Positions 4,093 to 43,707 of a DNA stretch of 43,707 nucleotides are shown one piece after another (positions within the stretch are counted from its first letter, which is position 1; the number at the start of each line of letters is the position of its first letter). This DNA is from a virus. A program made the translations under genes and the position numbers. The DNA is taken from the UHGV virus genome UHGV-0360526; one strand, written 5' to 3'. The notes beneath the pieces are model-generated. The model was not told where the DNA came from and made no database searches. It saw only the letters and a program-made list of their open reading frames with translations.

Positions 4093-4097
4093 ACTTA

Positions 4098-4135
4098 CCC
4101 TCTCTCCGTTTGGAGAGAGGGAGTATTTATTTTTA
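4098..4135 (+). terminator. rho-independent terminator
   Basis: Stem ccctctctcc-gttt-ggagagaggg followed by tatttatttttacg. Confidence 0.75.
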
Positions 4136-4190
4136 CGCTTTCGTGTCTAATTATGCACACGTAAACAAAATTAATTGAGGAACAGCTTAA

Positions 4191-4831: not shown

Positions 4832-4862
4832 AGATATATTTCATCTATGTGAGAATTCTCAC
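4832..4862 (+). promoter_or_regulatory. conserved promoter-like motif (AGATATAT..TT.C.TA.G) plus 5' hairpin, copy 1
   Basis: aagatatatttcatctatg followed by hairpin gtgagaattctcac, 24 nt before ATG 4886; same motif and hairpin arrangement recur at 18688 and 23073. Confidence 0.45.
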
Positions 4863-10028: not shown

Positions 10029-10058
10029 CCGTCCTTGATTTTTAACTACAGAATAGTC

Positions 10059-10104
10059 TCCTACCGCCCGATTCTATGGGCGGTAGGAGTTTTTATTTTT
10101 TTTT
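10059..10104 (+). terminator. rho-independent terminator
   Basis: Stem ctcctaccgccc-gattctat-gggcggtaggag followed by tttttatttttttttg. Confidence 0.75.
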
Positions 10105-18687: not shown

Positions 18688-18732
18688 TCAGATATATATT
18701 ACCTAGAGGAGAGCGAAATTTACATTCGCTCT
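18688..18732 (+). promoter_or_regulatory. conserved promoter-like motif plus 5' hairpin, copy 2
   Basis: tcagatatatattacctag followed by hairpin agagcgaa-atttaca-ttcgctct; 28 nt before ATG 18760. Confidence 0.45.
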
Positions 18733-23072: not shown

Positions 23073-23113
23073 TCAGATATATATTACCTAGGTGAGAGTA
23101 CAAAAGCTCTCAC
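23073..23113 (+). promoter_or_regulatory. conserved promoter-like motif plus 5' hairpin, copy 3
   Basis: tcagatatatattacctag identical to copy at 18688, followed by hairpin gtgagag-tacaaaag-ctctcac; 29 nt before ATG 23142. Confidence 0.45.
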
Positions 23114-31628: not shown

Positions 31629-31641
31629 GAAAAAATAAAAA

Positions 31642-31682
31642 TACCTACCTCCTATTACGGGAGGTAGGTATACTTTTTTTTC
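31642..31682. terminator. bidirectional terminator between convergent genes
   Basis: Stem tacctacctcc-tattacg-ggaggtaggta with A-run upstream and T-run downstream; between plus-strand stop 31628 and minus-strand stop 31691. Confidence 0.8.
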
Positions 31683-31690
31683 GCTGTCGA

Positions 31691-32362
31691 TTACAGCCCT
31701 TGCTCTAACGCAAACGCTTTTATCGAATCGTAATCACGTGCTTCAGCCCAAGCCCTGACTTCTCTTTTCTGCTCAGACATTGCGTGGTGTAGTCTTTGAT
31801 CGCGCTCAACGATTGCTGCCAGCAACGTCTTGCACTGTTCTAACGTAAACGGTTCAATACGGGTGTTGTTAGCCGTTAACCAATACGCTGGCGCAGTTTC
31901 TGACTGAATATAACGACTCAGTGCTACCTGTGACTTCTCATCTGCCTGGAAAGTGAAATCACCTACCTGAATCTCAGCATAGCGTGCATCCTGATAACGG
32001 AATTCCAAAGCGCTTAGAATTTTCTGAACATCGGTAAAGATGTACCGCACCGTGGAACGTAAACCTGTACGAATTTCTTCCAGGTCAATCCCCAACGTGT
32101 CGTTAACAAAGTCTTTCGCTTTCTGTAGCGTAAACCGTGCTTCGATTTCAGACATGTCGTAGTTACGCATTTGTTCCAATGCTTCGCGATCAGACATCCC
32201 ATCAATCAACTTATAGTGCAGTAACGCACAAAACCCTGTACGGCCGTGATCTTCACTACCGATTTTCTCCATGTAGTTACCATGACGGTCAATCGGTAAA
32301 TCATGCGCAAAATAACGGCGACGGATTTCTTCTTTCGTTAAGCCTTCACCAGTAGCAGACAT
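31691..32362 (-). CDS. hypothetical protein (last gene of minus-strand operon)
   Basis: 223-aa ORF overlapping the start of the upstream gene. Confidence 0.55.
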   Translation of the reverse strand: MSATGEGLTKEEIRRRYFAHDLPIDRHGNYMEKIGSEDHGRTGFCALLHYKLIDGMSDREALEQMRNYDMSEIEARFTLQKAKDFVNDTLGIDLEEIRTGLRSTVRYIFTDVQKILSALEFRYQDARYAEIQVGDFTFQADEKSQVALSRYIQSETAPAYWLTANNTRIEPFTLEQCKTLLAAIVERDQRLHHAMSEQKREVRAWAEARDYDSIKAFALEQGL

Positions 32363-32910
32363 TCATCGTCTCCTTTAATCAACCCTAATTCGATTAACAA
32401 TTCAAAATCGATATGACGGAATCTTGTGTCGAAGTCCGATTCCCAATCGATACGGATACCCTGGCATTCTTCTGGCGTTAGCTCAGGAAAAATCACGGTA
32501 TTAAATTTCTCTCGCTCATCGTAAAACCCATCAATCGGTGAGTTCGGGTTACGTGTTGCGAAGATAGTAATGCCGGGGAAGGACAATGCCAACACAGTGA
32601 TAGATTCTGCGCTGGGTTCGCTTAAAGAGCGGCGTAGAAACGCAATTTTGTGACGTGGGAAATCCAATACCCGTTCTTCAAACCCTGGGTTACGTTTTTC
32701 AATTTCCGCGACCGACAGGTCAGTAAGTTCGGTGCAGTACATTGGGATGATTACAGTCACGCCGTGACGAATCAGTAAGCGTTTTACGTCATCGGTAAAA
32801 TCTTCACCGTTAATCACCACATAACAACCGAATAGCTTACTGTTTTCCAGAAACTTATCCAGAAGTCGAATTCTACGCTTCGTAATATTGTTGATCAGAA
32901 TTGGTTTCAT
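32338..32910 (-). CDS. hypothetical protein
   Basis: 190-aa ORF; start overlaps the 3' end of the radical SAM gene. Confidence 0.5.
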   Translation of the reverse strand: MKPILINNITKRRIRLLDKFLENSKLFGCYVVINGEDFTDDVKRLLIRHGVTVIIPMYCTELTDLSVAEIEKRNPGFEERVLDFPRHKIAFLRRSLSEPSAESITVLALSFPGITIFATRNPNSPIDGFYDEREKFNTVIFPELTPEECQGIRIDWESDFDTRFRHIDFELLIELGLIKGDDECLLLVKA

Positions 32911-34195
32911 CTTTGGCTTCTCTTAATAATTTTTCCTTTTGGGCACGTTCACGAACACAGCGTGGGCAATAACACATGCTCGTGTCGTGGAACGCTTTTG
33001 CTGACGTCGTACCCATCTTCTGTTTCCAGTATTCCGCCACCATCAGTTTCGCTGTCGTCCAGCCACACTGACGACGTTCAGCGTGATACGCTTTACGGTC
33101 TTCTAACGTTCCTTCCCCGTTCTCGTAAGAAGCCGCCGCACAGCTACCACAAGCGTGTTTCATCGGACAACCTAAACAGGTCTCTGGGTAGTTGGTATAT
33201 TGCGTTTGAATCTCTTCTAACAATTTACCGTTGTCCAGACTGACGAATTCCCGACCTACCAACTCAAACACCGCAGAACGCGACGTTACCGTTGACATAA
33301 AGCGGTTACAGCCAAAGATCTTACGGTCAAATCCTAAGCACGTCATGTGGGTTAACGTCCCGCAGAACGGACGTAAACGTTCTGGGTTCAACCGTACAGT
33401 GTCATTATACAGTAACTGGTCACGCCAGTTCGGTTCCCAAATCGTATCGAAATCCAACCCTTCTGGAATGATGTGCGATAAGATATTACGTGGATTGGTG
33501 TGTAATCCTTTTTCAACCCAATAATCTATCACATCCATCATCTGTAAAGCGATTGATGTCGCCATGCTACGCGGCATAACGTCTTCGAAGGTTACGTTCC
33601 CAGAAATTGTCCCACCGCCAGTAATGTCAATTAATGACTTCATCCCCGCAGCATAGAACGGCAGTGTTTCTAACGTAAAGGTCGCTTTTACGCCGAGTTC
33701 TGCAATACCAACCTCTTTTAAGTAATTATAGCCACGTACTGCGGCTTCGTAAGAACCCTGACGCGTCGTTGTGAAGATACGATAGCGGTCATGGGATTCA
33801 GGTAAACCATCAATCGAAACCCCAACCGAAAGTTTGTCTTTCCAACGTTCTACAATCTCACGGTTCAACGGACGATCTAACAGCGTTCCGTTCGTGGAGA
33901 TACTAAACATAAACGGTCGGTTGTGTTCTTTACACAACTGCTCAGCGGTTTCAAACGCAGCCAGCAGCAGTTTAGGCTGCATGAACGGTTCACCACCGAT
34001 AATGTCGATAATAACTTCGACATTCGGTTCGTTTTTATCACGTTCAAAACAGGCGTGTAAGAAATCAACAATGTCAGCCGCTTTGTTGTTACGTGGGTAC
34101 TTACGTTCGTAGCAATATTCGCAGTCCAGGTTACACGAAAGGTTGGTTACGATCTGATACGTTAACTGCTTAGGGAATTCATTTACTTGACTCAT
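32873..34195 (-). CDS. radical SAM enzyme with C-terminal SPASM-like domain (peptide-maturase-like)
   Basis: 440 aa; CNLDCEYC (CxxxCxxC) near N-terminus, GGEP SAM-binding motif, C-terminal Cys clusters CGTLTHMTCLGFDRKIFGCNRF and CLGCPMKHACGSCAAAS. Confidence 0.8.
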   Translation of the reverse strand: MSQVNEFPKQLTYQIVTNLSCNLDCEYCYERKYPRNNKAADIVDFLHACFERDKNEPNVEVIIDIIGGEPFMQPKLLLAAFETAEQLCKEHNRPFMFSISTNGTLLDRPLNREIVERWKDKLSVGVSIDGLPESHDRYRIFTTTRQGSYEAAVRGYNYLKEVGIAELGVKATFTLETLPFYAAGMKSLIDITGGGTISGNVTFEDVMPRSMATSIALQMMDVIDYWVEKGLHTNPRNILSHIIPEGLDFDTIWEPNWRDQLLYNDTVRLNPERLRPFCGTLTHMTCLGFDRKIFGCNRFMSTVTSRSAVFELVGREFVSLDNGKLLEEIQTQYTNYPETCLGCPMKHACGSCAAASYENGEGTLEDRKAYHAERRQCGWTTAKLMVAEYWKQKMGTTSAKAFHDTSMCYCPRCVRERAQKEKLLREAKDETNSDQQYYEA

Positions 34196-35102
34196 TTGCC
34201 GCCCCTCTATTACGTCCTGCCATCACTACGCGACGAATATATTCGTACGCCTCTACACCGATAGAGAAGGCCAGTTGGTTACATCCCGATTCCAGAACGT
34301 TAGGTGCATTCTGGAGTTGGTGCTCACCACCGTCTGCATTAATCCAAAGACTTTCGCTGCAAACGTTACACCCTTCTTCAAACACTTTACTTACTGTAAA
34401 GCCGCATTCACGACCATTTACTACATTCAGTCGTTCAATGTTGTCCTGAACCTGATAGTAGCCGTAAATAAAGTTCATGACGTGGTCAGGCGATAAAGGT
34501 TTTGGCATTTTCGCGTCTAAGAGTAACGTCATTGCACGGAAACCGTAATGGTAAATCGCGCTGTGCAGCTGAATAATATCTTCGTGCCAGCGTTTGTCCC
34601 CTAAACGGTCCCGTGTCAGGACACCCCAAGTCTGGACATTATCCAGCTCGTAGATCGTTTCCAGTGCTTCGTAACAGCCTTCGTCAATAAAGCGCATAAA
34701 CGGGCGCTCAGACGACTTAAACCCATCGATGCTAACGTAGACATTGTCAAACTGTTTTAGCAACGGGAGATGCGATTTACGCATCTTTAAGCCATTGGTA
34801 TACAACTGGTGTTTGAGTTCTGGACGAATCACTTTTAATTCGTCAACAAACGCCTCAATTTTACGGGTTGCCAGTAATGGCTCACCACCCGTCCACTGAA
34901 TTTCGGTAATGGTTGGATTAGCTTCCAGCGCTTCCAAAATTCGCTCACGTTGAAACTCTCGCGGAGAATCTTCACGATTCATGTAATAGGCTCCACCGCA
35001 GAAGCTACAATCCAGGTTACACTTGGACGTAGCGACTACGGACAATACGGTGGGTTTATCGTATAAACGATTCGATAACCTTGGTTCTGCATTGGTTGTC
35101 AT
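34179..35102 (-). CDS. radical SAM enzyme (second, shorter paralog-like)
   Basis: 307 aa; CNLDCSFC (CxxxCxxC), GGEPLL motif, C-terminal Cys residues ECG..GCNVCSES..GCNQ; 17-nt overlap with downstream rSAM gene. Confidence 0.75.
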   Translation of the reverse strand: MTTNAEPRLSNRLYDKPTVLSVVATSKCNLDCSFCGGAYYMNREDSPREFQRERILEALEANPTITEIQWTGGEPLLATRKIEAFVDELKVIRPELKHQLYTNGLKMRKSHLPLLKQFDNVYVSIDGFKSSERPFMRFIDEGCYEALETIYELDNVQTWGVLTRDRLGDKRWHEDIIQLHSAIYHYGFRAMTLLLDAKMPKPLSPDHVMNFIYGYYQVQDNIERLNVVNGRECGFTVSKVFEEGCNVCSESLWINADGGEHQLQNAPNVLESGCNQLAFSIGVEAYEYIRRVVMAGRNRGAANESSK

Positions 35103-35123
35103 TGCAGGTGACTCCGGTCGTTT

Positions 35124-36023
35124 TTAAATATAATCAATGGCGAACAAAGGATCGTCGTCTACGTTAGCACCAGGGGTTAACAAGAATGGAGAGTTATACG
35201 CTTCCAAAATACGATTAAGGTCTTTATAACGGACATTTAAACGTTCTAAATCCGCTAACGTTACGTTACGGTCCAACACCGCCGACACTGCTGCTTTCTC
35301 TTCGTCAGTTAACGTGACTTTCGTCATTAAGAAACTAACGAGTTTTGCCAGATCCGCTTCTGTTGACGGATGCTCGCCAATACGTGTTTGAATCAAATGC
35401 TGCATCCAAGGCTTACGGATGCGTTTTGTGATTTCGTGTTCATCCGTCAGGGCAACCCACACGGAACGTTCACGGTCCCACACGAACTTATAGCTGTACG
35501 CCATTAAATCCGCTAAGCAATTAATCCCTAACGCTTCGTACCCTTCAATTTCGATATACGATTCCGTATCGAAATAGTTCTTCGTTTCTGGTGTTACCAG
35601 AGTAAAGAAATACGGGAACGAGCCTAAGTAATCTGGCGACCACCAACGACGGGCAACCGGTTTTGCACCCATTTCTTCAAATGGGGTAAAGAACAATTCC
35701 ATATCTACGGAGTTATTCAAAATCCCGTCACTAAAGAAATATTTACCCGCAACCAGTTTACCACGCAACTCGGAGTCACCGGTAAAAACCACTACACTTT
35801 CTGCCGTCAGATCACGAATCTTAAACGTATTTTCTACACGATAGTTTTTACGATCGGTAAAGAAACGTCCGCGCACTTTAGGCCATTCGCCCGGCAACTG
35901 TGTCAGCAGACGAACTTCATCTGCTAAATGTGCACGTACGGAATCAGGGGAAGAAATGTGAAGTGGATGATTGAAAATTGTTTTGTACGCTAAATGTAAA
36001 TCATTCTTCATCGATTGCTCCAA
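35124..36023 (-). CDS. hypothetical protein between Cys-rich peptide genes and radical SAM genes
   Basis: 299-aa ORF with RBS ggag; no recognisable motif. Confidence 0.5.
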   Translation of the reverse strand: MEQSMKNDLHLAYKTIFNHPLHISSPDSVRAHLADEVRLLTQLPGEWPKVRGRFFTDRKNYRVENTFKIRDLTAESVVVFTGDSELRGKLVAGKYFFSDGILNNSVDMELFFTPFEEMGAKPVARRWWSPDYLGSFPYFFTLVTPETKNYFDTESYIEIEGYEALGINCLADLMAYSYKFVWDRERSVWVALTDEHEITKRIRKPWMQHLIQTRIGEHPSTEADLAKLVSFLMTKVTLTDEEKAAVSAVLDRNVTLADLERLNVRYKDLNRILEAYNSPFLLTPGANVDDDPLFAIDYI

Positions 36024-36160: not shown

Positions 36161-36367
36161 TTACCTTCCCCCCGCACCTTTACTACAGCTACCACTGCAC
36201 GACCAGCTACATCCGCCGTTACAGTTATAATGGCTTAAAGGTAAACCGGCAAGGTTATTGGTTGAAGACACGGTGCCCTGGTTTGCAATATAGTTGTTTG
36301 CGTTAGCGGTCGTAATATACCCTTCCGCTGTTACTAACCGATCACGAAGGTTCTTAAGGCTAATCAC
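36161..36367 (-). CDS. CxxxC-repeat Cys-rich peptide 3 (short core)
   Basis: Listed ORF 36161-36433 overlaps peptide 2 out of frame; GTG at 36367 preceded by gggagg gives VISLKNLRDRL..., matching the leaders of peptides 1 and 2; core CNGGCSWSCSGSCSKGAGGR. Confidence 0.5.
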   Translation of the reverse strand: MISLKNLRDRLVTAEGYITTANANNYIANQGTVSSTNNLAGLPLSHYNCNGGCSWSCSGSCSKGAGGR

Positions 36368-36369
36368 AA

Positions 36370-36768
36370 TTACCTCCCAGAACAGCCACCGGAGCAAGCA
36401 CCAGAGCAGCCTGCAGAACAGTTTCCTACACACGAGTTAGAACAACTCCCCGTACAGCTTCCTGAACAGCCACCAGAACAGGTATTCGAACATCCACTAC
36501 AGCCTGCACTACAACCTGATACACAGTTTGCAGAACAGGAAGAACCACAGCCGCCTGATGCGTTCCCTGTACAACCACCAGAACAGCTCGAACAGGTCCA
36601 GCTACAGCTCCCACCACAGTCATAGTGGTTGCGAGCTTGCCCACCGAATAAGTCTGCGTTGTTCGTCGCTTTCCCACGAATATAGTTTTGTACTGCACCC
36701 GTATTCTTCAATGCAGTGTTGTCAATGTTATTTAGCCGCGCTTGTAGCGCAGGTAATCCAATTGCCAT
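36370..36768 (-). CDS. CxxxC-repeat Cys-rich peptide 2 (putative radical SAM substrate)
   Basis: 132 aa; ~50-aa leader MAIGLPALQARL... then ~80-aa core of about 20 Cys, mostly in C-x-x-x register with Ser/Gly between. Confidence 0.6.
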   Translation of the reverse strand: MAIGLPALQARLNNIDNTALKNTGAVQNYIRGKATNNADLFGGQARNHYDCGGSCSWTCSSCSGGCTGNASGGCGSSCSANCVSGCSAGCSGCSNTCSGGCSGSCTGSCSNSCVGNCSAGCSGACSGGCSGR

Positions 36769-36778
36769 TTTTCACCTC

Positions 36779-37177
36779 TTAGGTTGGGCCAGAACAGCCA
36801 CCGGAGCAAGCACCAGAACAACCCGTAGAACAACGGCCCGAGCAAGCACCTCCACAGGTCCCACTGCAACCTGAGCAGCCGCCGGAACACGTTGAACTAC
36901 ATCCAGTACACTGGTTACCACACGCGGATGAACAGCTACCTACACACACCGACGTACAGGTGCCCGAACAACTCGTACAGCCATGCGTACAACCGTTTGA
37001 GCACGTCCAGCTACAGCTTCCCCCGCAGTCTAACCGACTTGGCGTCCAACCCGAAAAAGTGTCGGCGGCATTATGTGCTTTCGACGCAACTTGCGGATCA
37101 ACACGTGGGCCAGTTGCCATTTGGTTCTCTACGTTGGTGATTCGGTCACGTACATTTTTAACACTGATCGCCATCAC
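36779..37177 (-). CDS. CxxxC-repeat Cys-rich peptide 1 (putative radical SAM substrate)
   Basis: 132 aa; leader MMAISVKNVRDRI...SRLDCGG then core with 21 Cys (CSWTCSNGCTHGC...CSGACSGGCSG); RBS aagga; ATG at 37174 also possible. Confidence 0.6.
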   Translation of the reverse strand: MMAISVKNVRDRITNVENQMATGPRVDPQVASKAHNAADTFSGWTPSRLDCGGSCSWTCSNGCTHGCTSCSGTCTSVCVGSCSSACGNQCTGCSSTCSGGCSGCSGTCGGACSGRCSTGCSGACSGGCSGPT

Positions 37178-37184
37178 GTATCCT

Positions 37185-37231
37185 TAAAATAAAAAAGAAT
37201 GGAGGACTACGCCCATAAGCATAGTTCCTCC
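37185..37231 (-). terminator. rho-independent terminator between fibre gene and Cys-rich peptide genes
   Basis: On minus strand: stem ggaggaact-atgcttatgggcgt-agtcctcc followed by attcttttttatttt, ending ~10 nt before the RBS of peptide 1. Confidence 0.65.
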
Positions 37232-37241
37232 TGTAATAAAG

Positions 37242-38441
37242 TTATTTCGTACCCGCTTCTGCCTGAACGTCATCACGGGACGTCAAGTTAGCGTTAACGT
37301 GCACTGGAGCCTGAACCACACCGCCGTATTTCTTGTGGAGATAACCTGTGTGCGGGTTATCCGCCGCAATATGGTTTTGTAGGTTCTGATTCGCCTGACT
37401 GATTGCGTTCGTGTTATTCGCAACCTGTTGTTTAAGCGCATCCAGGTTTTGTTGCAGATTATCAATTTTCTGATCGGACTCATTACCCCGTTGTTCTAAC
37501 GCAGCAATGCGCTGAATCGCTTGGTTGAGTTTGGTGTTCAGATCGTTGATATTTTTCTGTAACTGTAACACTAGCGAATTTAGGTTCGCCAATGCCAATG
37601 CCATCTTCTGGTAGTTTTGGGCAACGATGTTAAGTTGGTCGTTCCACGCTTCCAAAGATTTGACAACAGCATCAATACGTTTTCCTAACGCTTCGTCTGC
37701 TTTCTTCAACGCATTAATATCAGTAATGGTTGCATCGATGGCAGATTGTACGTCACGGATAAGTGCACGGATCTCCGTTTCTGTTAACCCGTTAACCTGA
37801 TGAATATCCAGATGGTGGACATTACCCGTGGCGTTAATGTGCGCGTTCAGCGCGTCCAGGAAATCGTTTTTCAGGCTTTCGAGAATCGCTTTGATGTTCT
37901 CAAGCTGTACAGCATCACCCGCCGTTATCGCATCTTTGATGCCAGCGAGCACTGTAATGATATATTCGAAGCCGTAAATATCGCCGACGTCTTTATACGT
38001 TGGTGCCGAAGGAAACGTGTCCGGCACATTTCGCAAGTCTTTAAAGCCAACAGTTCGATTATCGAGATTCAGCTCGGCAATCGCCTGTTCTATCGCGGGC
38101 ACGTTTGCCGACTGCGGACCCCCGACTACTTGCGCTGATACCGTGATATCGGTCGGAATCGCGGTGTTCGTTACAACAACCGCCATTACCACTTCCCGGT
38201 TCTTCGTCAATTTCTCGTAAGCCGGGTGTGCAAAAATCAACTCGTAGTCCGTTCCGCGCTCATACGTCGCGTCGGGTCGATTGGCAACCCGCAAGCGGAA
38301 CGTATCAGCATAAAACGGTCCGTCAGGAAAAGCAAACGCACGGTTAACTTTACCTGTACCTAACGTAATCTGACGCTCCACGGCGTTAGAGGTTAGGCTT
38401 CCCGTTAAATCTAAAGGGTATTGGTATACAATGGAGGCCAT
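37242..38441 (-). CDS. tail-fibre-like protein (N-terminal attachment domain plus long coiled coil)
   Basis: Listed ORF to 38549; ATG at 38441 with RBS aaggagag gives MASIVYQYPLDL; N-terminus shares the P-x-G-P-F-Y motif region with the 1727-aa protein; C-terminal half is heptad-rich. Confidence 0.6.
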   Translation of the reverse strand: MASIVYQYPLDLTGSLTSNAVERQITLGTGKVNRAFAFPDGPFYADTFRLRVANRPDATYERGTDYELIFAHPAYEKLTKNREVVMAVVVTNTAIPTDITVSAQVVGGPQSANVPAIEQAIAELNLDNRTVGFKDLRNVPDTFPSAPTYKDVGDIYGFEYIITVLAGIKDAITAGDAVQLENIKAILESLKNDFLDALNAHINATGNVHHLDIHQVNGLTETEIRALIRDVQSAIDATITDINALKKADEALGKRIDAVVKSLEAWNDQLNIVAQNYQKMALALANLNSLVLQLQKNINDLNTKLNQAIQRIAALEQRGNESDQKIDNLQQNLDALKQQVANNTNAISQANQNLQNHIAADNPHTGYLHKKYGGVVQAPVHVNANLTSRDDVQAEAGTK

Positions 38442-43665: not shown

Positions 43666-43707
43666 CGTAAAGACTCCTACTTTTAAATAAAATGGATACC
43701 CCTCCCC

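Follow-up and report, generated by a model that had tools for sequence, protein, structure and literature searches.

A candidate phage promoter nested in a terminator-type hairpin between the fibre and Cys-rich peptide genes of an SPN3US-like jumbo phage

How are genes expressed that lie directly behind a terminator, in a gap that seems too short for a promoter? The question is raised by one junction in a 43,707-nt stretch of viral DNA (UHGV-0360526, here called the window), where a hairpin followed by a U-tract separates a fibre gene from a run of Cys-rich peptide and radical-SAM (rSAM) genes. A preliminary description of this DNA held that no promoter fits there, that the peptide/rSAM genes must be reached by read-through or antitermination, and that their expression would be a fixed fraction of fibre transcription. 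On balance we favour a different reading, in which a terminator and a promoter would be nested in the 64-nt spacer between the fibre and Cys-rich genes of this phiKZ-related jumbo phage.

Protein-level matches identify the window as part of an SPN3US-like, phiKZ-related jumbo phage. No deposited phage matched the junction region in a DNA search at near identity, and relatives were found by protein only. The 435-aa 'fibre' shares 76% aa identity with gp167 ('virion structural protein 20') of the Salmonella phage SPN3US, homologues in the Erwinia phages Asesino, phiEaH2, ChrisDB, Wellington and others are 63-77% identical, and IMG/VR contigs are 94-99% identical to the window at this protein. 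The fibre reading frame is open back to 38549, and the start conserved in annotated homologues is the ATG at 38441 (MASIVYQYPL...). The genes around the junction are as follows.

37242..38441, minus strand, fibre or 'virion structural protein 20' gene (phrog_2163, E = 8e-103)
36779..37174, minus strand, Cys-rich gene 1, 131 aa from the ATG at 37174 (phrog_6085, E = 1.5e-40)
36370..36768, minus strand, Cys-rich gene 2, 132 aa (phrog_6085, E = 2.5e-39)
36161..36367, minus strand, Cys-rich gene 3, short, about 68 aa from a GTG start; homologous ORFs of 68-72 aa are annotated in relatives
31691..36023, minus strand, rest of the putative transcription unit, with a 299-aa gene (phrog_8030), two radical-SAM genes, a 190-aa gene and a 223-aa DUF4376 gene
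31640..31680, bidirectional terminator hairpin between convergent genes (-26.7 kcal/mol, T/A runs on both sides), which closes the minus-strand unit

No other hairpin with a T-tract was found on the minus strand between 37187 and 31690. The gene order is kept in all relatives: a 1727-aa gene, the fibre gene, two or three Cys-rich genes of about 130 aa (phrog_6085), the 299-aa gene (phrog_8030), two radical-SAM genes, the 190-aa gene and the DUF4376 gene. One distant fibre homologue (L023) comes without Cys-rich genes and is uninformative for the junction. A literature search returned no paper on the Cys-rich/rSAM cluster and no transcriptome of an SPN3US-like phage. Reading along the minus strand of the window, the junction consists of the following elements.

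37244-37242, minus strand, fibre stop codon TAA, read from the sequence
between the fibre stop TAA and the inverted repeat, minus strand, CTTTATTACA
37236-37233, minus strand, TTAC box, candidate upstream element of the phiKZ middle type, at -22 to -19 from the loop G
37231-37201, minus strand, whole terminator-type hairpin, 6 bp, a bulged A and 7 bp, with a 4-nt loop
37231-37218, minus strand, 5' arm of the hairpin, GGAGGA-(A bulge)-CTATGCT
37217-37214, minus strand, loop TATG, candidate start-site motif of a phage RNAP, with predicted +1 at G37214
37213-37201, minus strand, 3' arm of the hairpin, GGCGTAG-TCCTCC
37200-37186, minus strand, ATTCTTTTTTATTTT, with 12 T; its final base is the first A of the RBS
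37200-37187, minus strand, T-tract ATTCTTTTTTATTT, the terminator U-tract, and a U-rich leader if RNA starts at 37214
37186-37182, minus strand, RBS AAGGA of Cys-rich gene 1, of which AAGG is invariant among relatives
37177 and 37174, minus strand, GTG and ATG respectively, the ATG being the start conserved in relatives

The hairpin and U-tract between the fibre stop codon and Cys-rich gene 1 are confirmed. The stem begins 10 nt past the stop codon in sense orientation, and the hairpin alone folds with -18.2 kcal/mol; a 40-nt segment containing it reaches -19.7 kcal/mol (z = -5.7 against shuffles), and z is -2.97 against dinucleotide shuffles for its 91-nt context. The baseline from random 40-mers of SPN3US is a mean of -6.6 kcal/mol with a 1% quantile of -15.0, and the strength of the junction hairpin is on par with that of the best canonical terminators of the window. 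Its position needs a correction, as the element was said to end about 10 nt before the RBS; the T-tract directly adjoins the RBS and ends about 12 nt from the ATG, and 14 nt lie between the end of the stem and the RBS. The hairpin is unidirectional, because its plus-strand copy has no T-tract 3' of the stem. A simple consensus terminator scan did not pick it up, owing to the bulge and to the scanner's limits on stem and loop, and a fixed-width terminator scan of SPN3US missed the 33-nt hairpin at its own copy of the junction. The sequence features of an intrinsic terminator are all present, namely a GC-rich stem with a short loop, an adjoining T-tract, a position downstream of a stop codon, and covariation of the stem among relatives. 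A small ORF beginning at the loop ATG (MGVVLHSFLF and a stop in the window) was considered and rejected, its frame, its stop and any RBS not being conserved in relatives.

These features could belong to a plain intrinsic terminator passed by partial read-through or antitermination, with the Cys-rich/rSAM genes having no promoter of their own and the loop being incidental or there for hairpin stability. We regard this account as possible but doubtful. The junction hairpin and T-tract are canonical and conserved, as it predicts, and a second site in the window points the same way: the RBS of the 1727-aa gene directly follows a plain terminator whose loop reads TGTAA and which lacks TATG, so that read-through junctions probably exist in this phage. 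Furthermore, conditional read-through has been reported for terminators of phiKZ, as has possible antitermination for 201phi2-1 (PMC10914365, PMC11512511).

The argument against a promoter holds for host-type sites, and a consensus scan for sigma-70 promoters (-35/-10 hexamers with a 16-18-nt spacer) found none between 37178 and 37241. Yet that same interval contains a TTAC-N15-TATG of the phage-RNAP type, and the predicted start at G37214 falls inside it. The deduction that no promoter can be present is not supported, because the clade encodes its own multisubunit RNAPs and the promoter core in phiKZ is the compact TATG; the dependence of the peptide/rSAM genes on read-through or antitermination, which presupposes host-type promoters, is not supported. 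Motifs of the middle and late promoters of phiKZ were reportedly described by Ceyssens in 2014, as cited by others. The non-virion RNAP (nvRNAP) of phiKZ initiates at the G of 5'-TATG-3', a motif in which every base is needed and which does not suffice alone (PMC4666361), and the late promoter is written as T(-3)ATG(+1) (PMC4666361, PMC12809450). The middle promoters carry AAanTTACc centred near -24, at times together with TATG (PMC4666361; review PMC7598289), and are not used in vitro by the purified phiKZ nvRNAP (PMC4666361). In a 2026 structure, the beta-like subunit GP123 reads TATG on the opened, single-stranded non-template strand (PMC12809450). The junction has an exact TTAC-N15-TATG match whose TATG is the hairpin loop, and at sequence level both promoter elements, TTAC and TATG, are in place.

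SPN3US, with a completely assembled genome and 264 annotated CDS, served as the test set for this promoter grammar. Between -60 and -20 of its start codons TATG shows a 2-3x enrichment, whereas the reverse complement CATA is not enriched, and TTAC peaks about 20 nt further upstream than TATG. Among 41 intergenic upstream TATGs, 9 have TTAC exactly at -22 to -19, often as AAAATTAC. With the 15-nt spacer the pair TTAC-N15-TATG occurs 24 times, against 1-8 times for every other spacer from 8 to 23 nt. Fifteen of these 24 sites are intergenic in a genome that is 6.4% intergenic, and 10 lie no more than 80 nt upstream of an annotated start on the same strand, as compared with 0-1 for other spacers. 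The SPN3US copy of the fibre/Cys junction (G144258, minus strand) is one of the 24, and precedes a Cys-rich gene that GenBank leaves unannotated. The 40-nt leader predicted for the window is within the 21-59 nt range typical of the SPN3US sites.

The window alone shows no enrichment of TTAC-N15-TATG (3 matches against 1.9 expected), and the motif signal emerges clearly only when other spacer lengths serve as controls in a complete annotated genome, that of SPN3US. Two of the three window matches are intergenic and face the next gene, one at 37236-37214 (minus) and the other at 4133-4155 (plus). The latter and its SPN3US homologue at 100137-100159 keep TTAC, TATG and the 15-nt spacing, and the sequence of the spacer has fully diverged.

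SPN3US encodes several fragments of RNA polymerase beta and beta'; no RNAP genes were found within the window. Matches to the solved phiKZ nvRNAP subunits pair gp23 of SPN3US with phiKZ gp55, gp34 with gp71, and gp77 with GP123, and PDB searches with SPN3US gp22, gp36, gp42 and gp78 gave no phiKZ nvRNAP match. In the TATG pocket of GP123, 5 of 14 residues are identical in gp77 (Phe151, Asn186, Ser330, His331 and Ser402) and 3 of 14 are conservative, the 6 others differing or falling in gaps; the changes from GP123 to gp77 include Tyr406 to Trp, Gln466 to Glu and Ser144 to Cys. This partial conservation of the pocket lends weak, non-decisive support to the TATG reading.

The comparison drew on Seoulvirus, Erskinevirus, Machinavirus, Wellingtonvirus and the IMG/VR contigs of the window's metagenomic clade, which together gave 22 homologous junctions (18 distinct). 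The hairpin was found in 22 of 22, with -17.6 to -24.1 kcal/mol and z from -5 to -6.5. Among 13 distinct hairpins, compensatory two-sided changes affect 10 or more of some 15 positions in the stem, such as -6 (GC x6, CG x7), -8 (AT x6, GC x7), -9 (TA x8, CG x4) and -10 (CG x9, TA x4). These counts come from individual MFE folds, in which pairs are indexed by the 5' partner and the 5' arm has a fixed length from the loop G. From a MAFFT alignment RNAalifold recovered no more than 6 pairs, as differently placed bulges put the 3' arms out of register.

While the stems vary, the loop TATGG is invariant in all 22 junctions. The other invariant blocks of the aligned junctions are the AC of the TTAC box (15 aligned junctions), the AAGG of the RBS and the start ATGGC, and all relatives share the start of Cys-rich gene 1, ATGGCGAT (ATG 37174). 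The TTAC-to-TATG spacing is fixed at 15 nt, or 16 nt in the Wellington group, and Asesino and phiEaH2 have AAAC instead of TTAC; between loop and RBS, relatives have anywhere from 23 to 27 nt. A terminator accounts for the covarying stem, but not for a loop of invariant sequence or for a box held at fixed distance outside the stem. Both the invariance of TATGG next to a freely varying stem and the fixed TTAC spacing are left unexplained by the plain-terminator account, as is the match to a motif that is about 5-fold enriched at its exact spacing upstream of SPN3US genes. The canonical terminators of the clade also differ in their loops, which are tetraloops of the UUCG/CGAA type and not TATG; they are commonly followed by TTTTTAC and, 15 nt on, by TATG. 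The region 3' of the stem is T-rich in all relatives, with a weak T-tract in SNUABM_4, ChrisDB and Wellington, and given these weak tracts the termination efficiency may differ among relatives.

A conserved loop on a covarying stem is also the classic signature of a protein-binding RNA hairpin. The junction could accordingly act at the RNA level, as a 3'-end stabilisation or processing site which parts the fibre mRNA from the Cys-rich mRNA after transcription, its UAUGG loop being bound by an RNase or an RNA-binding protein of the phage or the host. We consider this improbable, as it does not predict that the loop should be a known start-site motif with TTAC at promoter spacing outside the hairpin. 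At the gathering threshold Rfam gave no match in the window, neither to an antitermination site of the nut/put type nor to a known cis-regulatory RNA.

The anatomy of the junction, its conservation and covariation, the motif counts and the polymerase homologues are observed; from them we infer termination at this hairpin, initiation at 37214 and the form of polymerase that would use the site. In the nested terminator and promoter reading, a polymerase arriving from the 1727-aa and fibre genes would transcribe the whole inverted repeat, and the RNA hairpin at 37231-37201 with the U-tract at 37200-37187 would terminate most fibre transcripts or stabilise their 3' ends; phiKZ-type polymerases do use terminators of the hairpin/T-tract kind in vivo (PMC10914365, PMC11512511). 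The same DNA would serve as a promoter of the phage non-virion RNAP, with TTAC at -22 to -19 (37236-37233), the loop TATG, and +1 at G37214. RNA starting there would contain the 3' arm only; because the 5' arm is absent, such transcripts could not form the hairpin and would escape the terminator. In them the T-tract would become part of a U-rich 40-nt leader ahead of the RBS, and this leader is predicted to be unstructured, its folding being no greater than that of shuffled sequence (z = 0.14). The RNAs from G37214 would express Cys-rich genes 1-3, and probably also the 299-aa gene, the radical-SAM genes and the downstream genes as far as the terminator near 31660. A start site of their own probably serves the downstream Cys-rich genes, which then would not have to rely on read-through. 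The net effect would be a Cys-rich/rSAM module insulated from fibre transcription and not set at a fixed fraction of it as had been proposed, although partial read-through may still contribute at this junction.

To what extent do hairpin and promoter motif belong together? In SPN3US, a strong hairpin accompanies only 2 of the 15 intergenic TTAC-N15-TATG sites, namely the fibre/Cys junction (-20.8 kcal/mol) and a site at 72661 (-18.1 kcal/mol), which has no T-tract. The other intergenic sites fold at background level, and 11-13 of the 15 are without a significant hairpin. Since most of these sites have no hairpin, the hairpin is a separate element superimposed on the promoter-like motif. Over the window as a whole, hairpins with a TATG loop show no enrichment: there are 27, and shuffled sequence gives 32.

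The hairpin could instead act in the DNA as a structure-dependent promoter, comparable in principle to those of phage N4: extruded as a cruciform or hairpin, it would present single-stranded TATG to the beta-lobe pocket, with termination secondary or absent. Such a role would agree with the binding of TATG by GP123 only after the non-template strand opens (PMC12809450), with the additional determinants of the phiKZ promoter P119L, which are undefined and have no sequence consensus (PMC12809450, PMC4666361), and with the hairpin lacking a T-tract at SPN3US 72661. However, the scarcity of hairpins at the intergenic sites means that promoters of this kind do not generally need the structure, T-tracts follow the hairpin at all the other nested sites, as terminators need, and replacing the upstream sequence in P119L has only modest effects (PMC4666361). 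We rate this cruciform promoter as low in probability as the RNA-level element. Hardly less unlikely is a dual role, in which the 31-nt palindrome would both stop incoming transcription as RNA and nucleate initiation as DNA, breathing or extrusion exposing the TATG of the loop. If true, the palindrome would provide the 'missing determinant' through which a motif of 4 nt can suffice at some promoters of jumbo phages.

Intrinsic terminators, TATG/TTAC promoters of the phiKZ type and read-through terminators are all already known. Partial terminators such as T-phi of T7 and those of the lambda type set downstream expression by read-through and have no promoter inside the hairpin. The junction resembles them in placing a terminator between structural genes, where downstream genes could receive a fraction of the upstream transcription, but differs in the promoter-like motif conserved inside its hairpin. 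The hairpin promoters of the N4 virion RNAP serve a single-subunit polymerase and have a 5-7-bp stem, a 3-nt loop and a start downstream of the hairpin, which every promoter of that class needs in order to be recognised. A promoter associated with a DNA hairpin is the common element; here, in contrast, the polymerase would be multisubunit, the stem has 13 bp and the loop 4 nt, and most sites of the class have no hairpin, so that the junction is not of the N4 type.

The phiKZ nvRNAP promoters are closer, sharing the 4-nt start motif, a TTAC box at similar distance, homologous polymerase subunits in the clade and 5'UTR distances typical of genes. The candidate sites described here differ in being sharply bipartite with a fixed 15-nt spacer and, at the junction, built into a terminator hairpin. 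The terminators of phiKZ and 201phi2-1 (GC stem-loop and TTATK; Putzeys 2024, PMC10914365; PMC11512511) likewise have a hairpin with a T-rich tail that is coupled to TATG. In phiKZ, however, TATG comes after the stem, in the tail, whereas here it is the loop, so that the initiating RNA would omit the 5' arm; the phiKZ stems also form a family (CCYCCCC), and the stems here are variable. Of 38 hairpin/T-tail elements in the first 50 kb of phiKZ, 12 carry TATG no more than 6 nt from the stem, against 1.3-1.9 expected, in agreement with the published terminator consensus ...GGBYTTATK (PMC10914365). At the level of predicted elements, the physical coupling of terminator hairpins to the start-site motif extends across the group, and the in-loop geometry is a distinct variant. 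A 2026 preprint reportedly describes promoter-terminator coupling in bacteria generally. Our literature search turned up neither a start-site motif described as the loop of a terminator hairpin that covaries across four genera, nor a transcription start inside such a hairpin.

If the nested reading is correct, a giant phage with its own polymerases packs its stop and start signals into one 31-nt hairpin, and the Cys-rich/radical-SAM module could have a timing and dosage independent of the structural fibre genes. The middle and late promoters of the group were described in a 2020 review as not predictable by bioinformatics (PMC7598289). TTAC-N15-TATG in SPN3US would be a computable promoter class and bears on why TATG is necessary but insufficient, that is, on how a 4-nt promoter gains specificity, the evidence being wholly computational. 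The reading predicts exact starts, namely G37214 for the window and G144258 for SPN3US, a model phage that is amenable to genetics. For annotation, a caution follows: arguments of the type 'no room for a promoter' that rest on sigma-70 geometry are not transferable to phages with their own RNAPs.

The phage also uses the same elements side by side. In a tandem terminator-then-promoter layout of about 98 nt (window 4093-4190, SPN3US 100095-100192), a GC hairpin and T-tract are followed by TTAC, N15, TATG, a leader and an RBS. The fibre/Cys junction has the same parts in 64 nt, with the promoter inside the hairpin, and nesting would thus save space. A minority class of sites has this compact arrangement, with TATG at the hairpin loop, then a T-tract and then an RBS, in short spacers between genes of the same strand. 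Its members are three SPN3US sites (105760, 200917 and 225623), the fibre/Cys junction, and the window site at 10055-10092, where the stem differs from that of the SPN3US homologue and the loop TATG is kept.

Across the whole SPN3US genome (records L010-L014), which belongs to an annotated Salmonella phage related to the virus studied here, the bipartite motif TTAC-N15-TATG is sharply defined, with 24 copies at this spacing and 1-8 at each of the other spacers from 8 to 23, and the majority of the copies lie immediately upstream of genes. The motif looks like a computable promoter class of SPN3US-like phages. According to a 2020 review (PMC7598289), such phages have middle and late promoters that bioinformatics cannot predict. 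The motif was matched in the window at the following positions.

4133-4155, plus strand: TTAC-N15-TATG copy
37214-37236, minus strand: TTAC-N15-TATG copy, in the spacer between the fibre gene and Cys-rich gene 1

In phiKZ 1-50000 (L033), TATG lies no more than 6 nt past the stem in 12 of the 38 GC-hairpin/T-tail elements (1.3-1.9 expected), indicating an overlap between the start motif of late promoters and the published terminator tail 'TTATK'. No comment on this overlap was found in the sections consulted of the paper describing the terminator motif. Hairpins that carry TATG in the loop or enclose it were located at two further sites.

Window 10055-10092, plus strand: 13-bp hairpin with loop CGATTCTATG; a T-tract follows, then an RBS with a GTG start codon at ~10118
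SPN3US 72645-72675 (L011 22645-22675), plus strand: TTAC-N15-TATG inside a strong hairpin (-18.1 kcal/mol) without a T-tract

The homologue of the former in SPN3US (105760-105795) keeps the loop TATG on a different stem sequence. The gene start placed at the loop ATG (10076) in a mechanical ORF list is probably wrong. Only the latter site gives a hint that a hairpin around TATG might act at the DNA level. It lies downstream of the major capsid gene and is followed by an early-promoter-like box.

Another junction lies upstream of the gene of 1727 aa that precedes the fibre gene.

Window 43666-43707, minus strand (also L031 2215-2400): two hairpins, then a T-tract continuous with the RBS

The second hairpin has a TGTAA loop and lacks TATG. 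Judged from its sequence, this junction is a true terminator without a visible promoter, and it is a better candidate for read-through or antitermination than the fibre/Cys-rich junction.

AT-rich boxes in the window, each with a small hairpin after it and lying ahead of short unannotated ORFs, are similar to the AT-rich consensus of early (virion-RNAP) promoters in phiKZ-like phages.

~18690-18710, plus strand: near-identical copy of CAGATATATATTACCTAG
~23078-23096, plus strand: near-identical copy of CAGATATATATTACCTAG
~4835-4850, plus strand: looser copy of CAGATATATATTACCTAG

In the window, the tail-fibre module contains the Cys-rich genes and, adjoining them, genes for two radical-SAM enzymes and for a conserved protein of 299 aa (32873-35102, minus strand).

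36779-37174, minus strand: Cys-rich protein, ~131 aa (phrog_6085)
36370-36768, minus strand: Cys-rich protein, ~131 aa (phrog_6085)
36161-36367, minus strand: Cys-rich protein, ~68 aa

In all three proteins a fibre-like N-terminus precedes dense CxxxC/GGCSG repeats (phrog_6085). By its gene content, the cluster resembles a RiPP-like maturation system that may act on virion-associated proteins; a literature search on the cluster found no paper. Comparison of L001, L004 and L024-L027 revealed that the Cys-rich genes are unannotated in many GenBank records, including SPN3US (143745-144285; L001 7743-8283), the SPFM series, SPAsTU and Caitlin, and that an antisense ORF is annotated instead in Parshik, Huxley, ChrisDB and several SNUABM phages.
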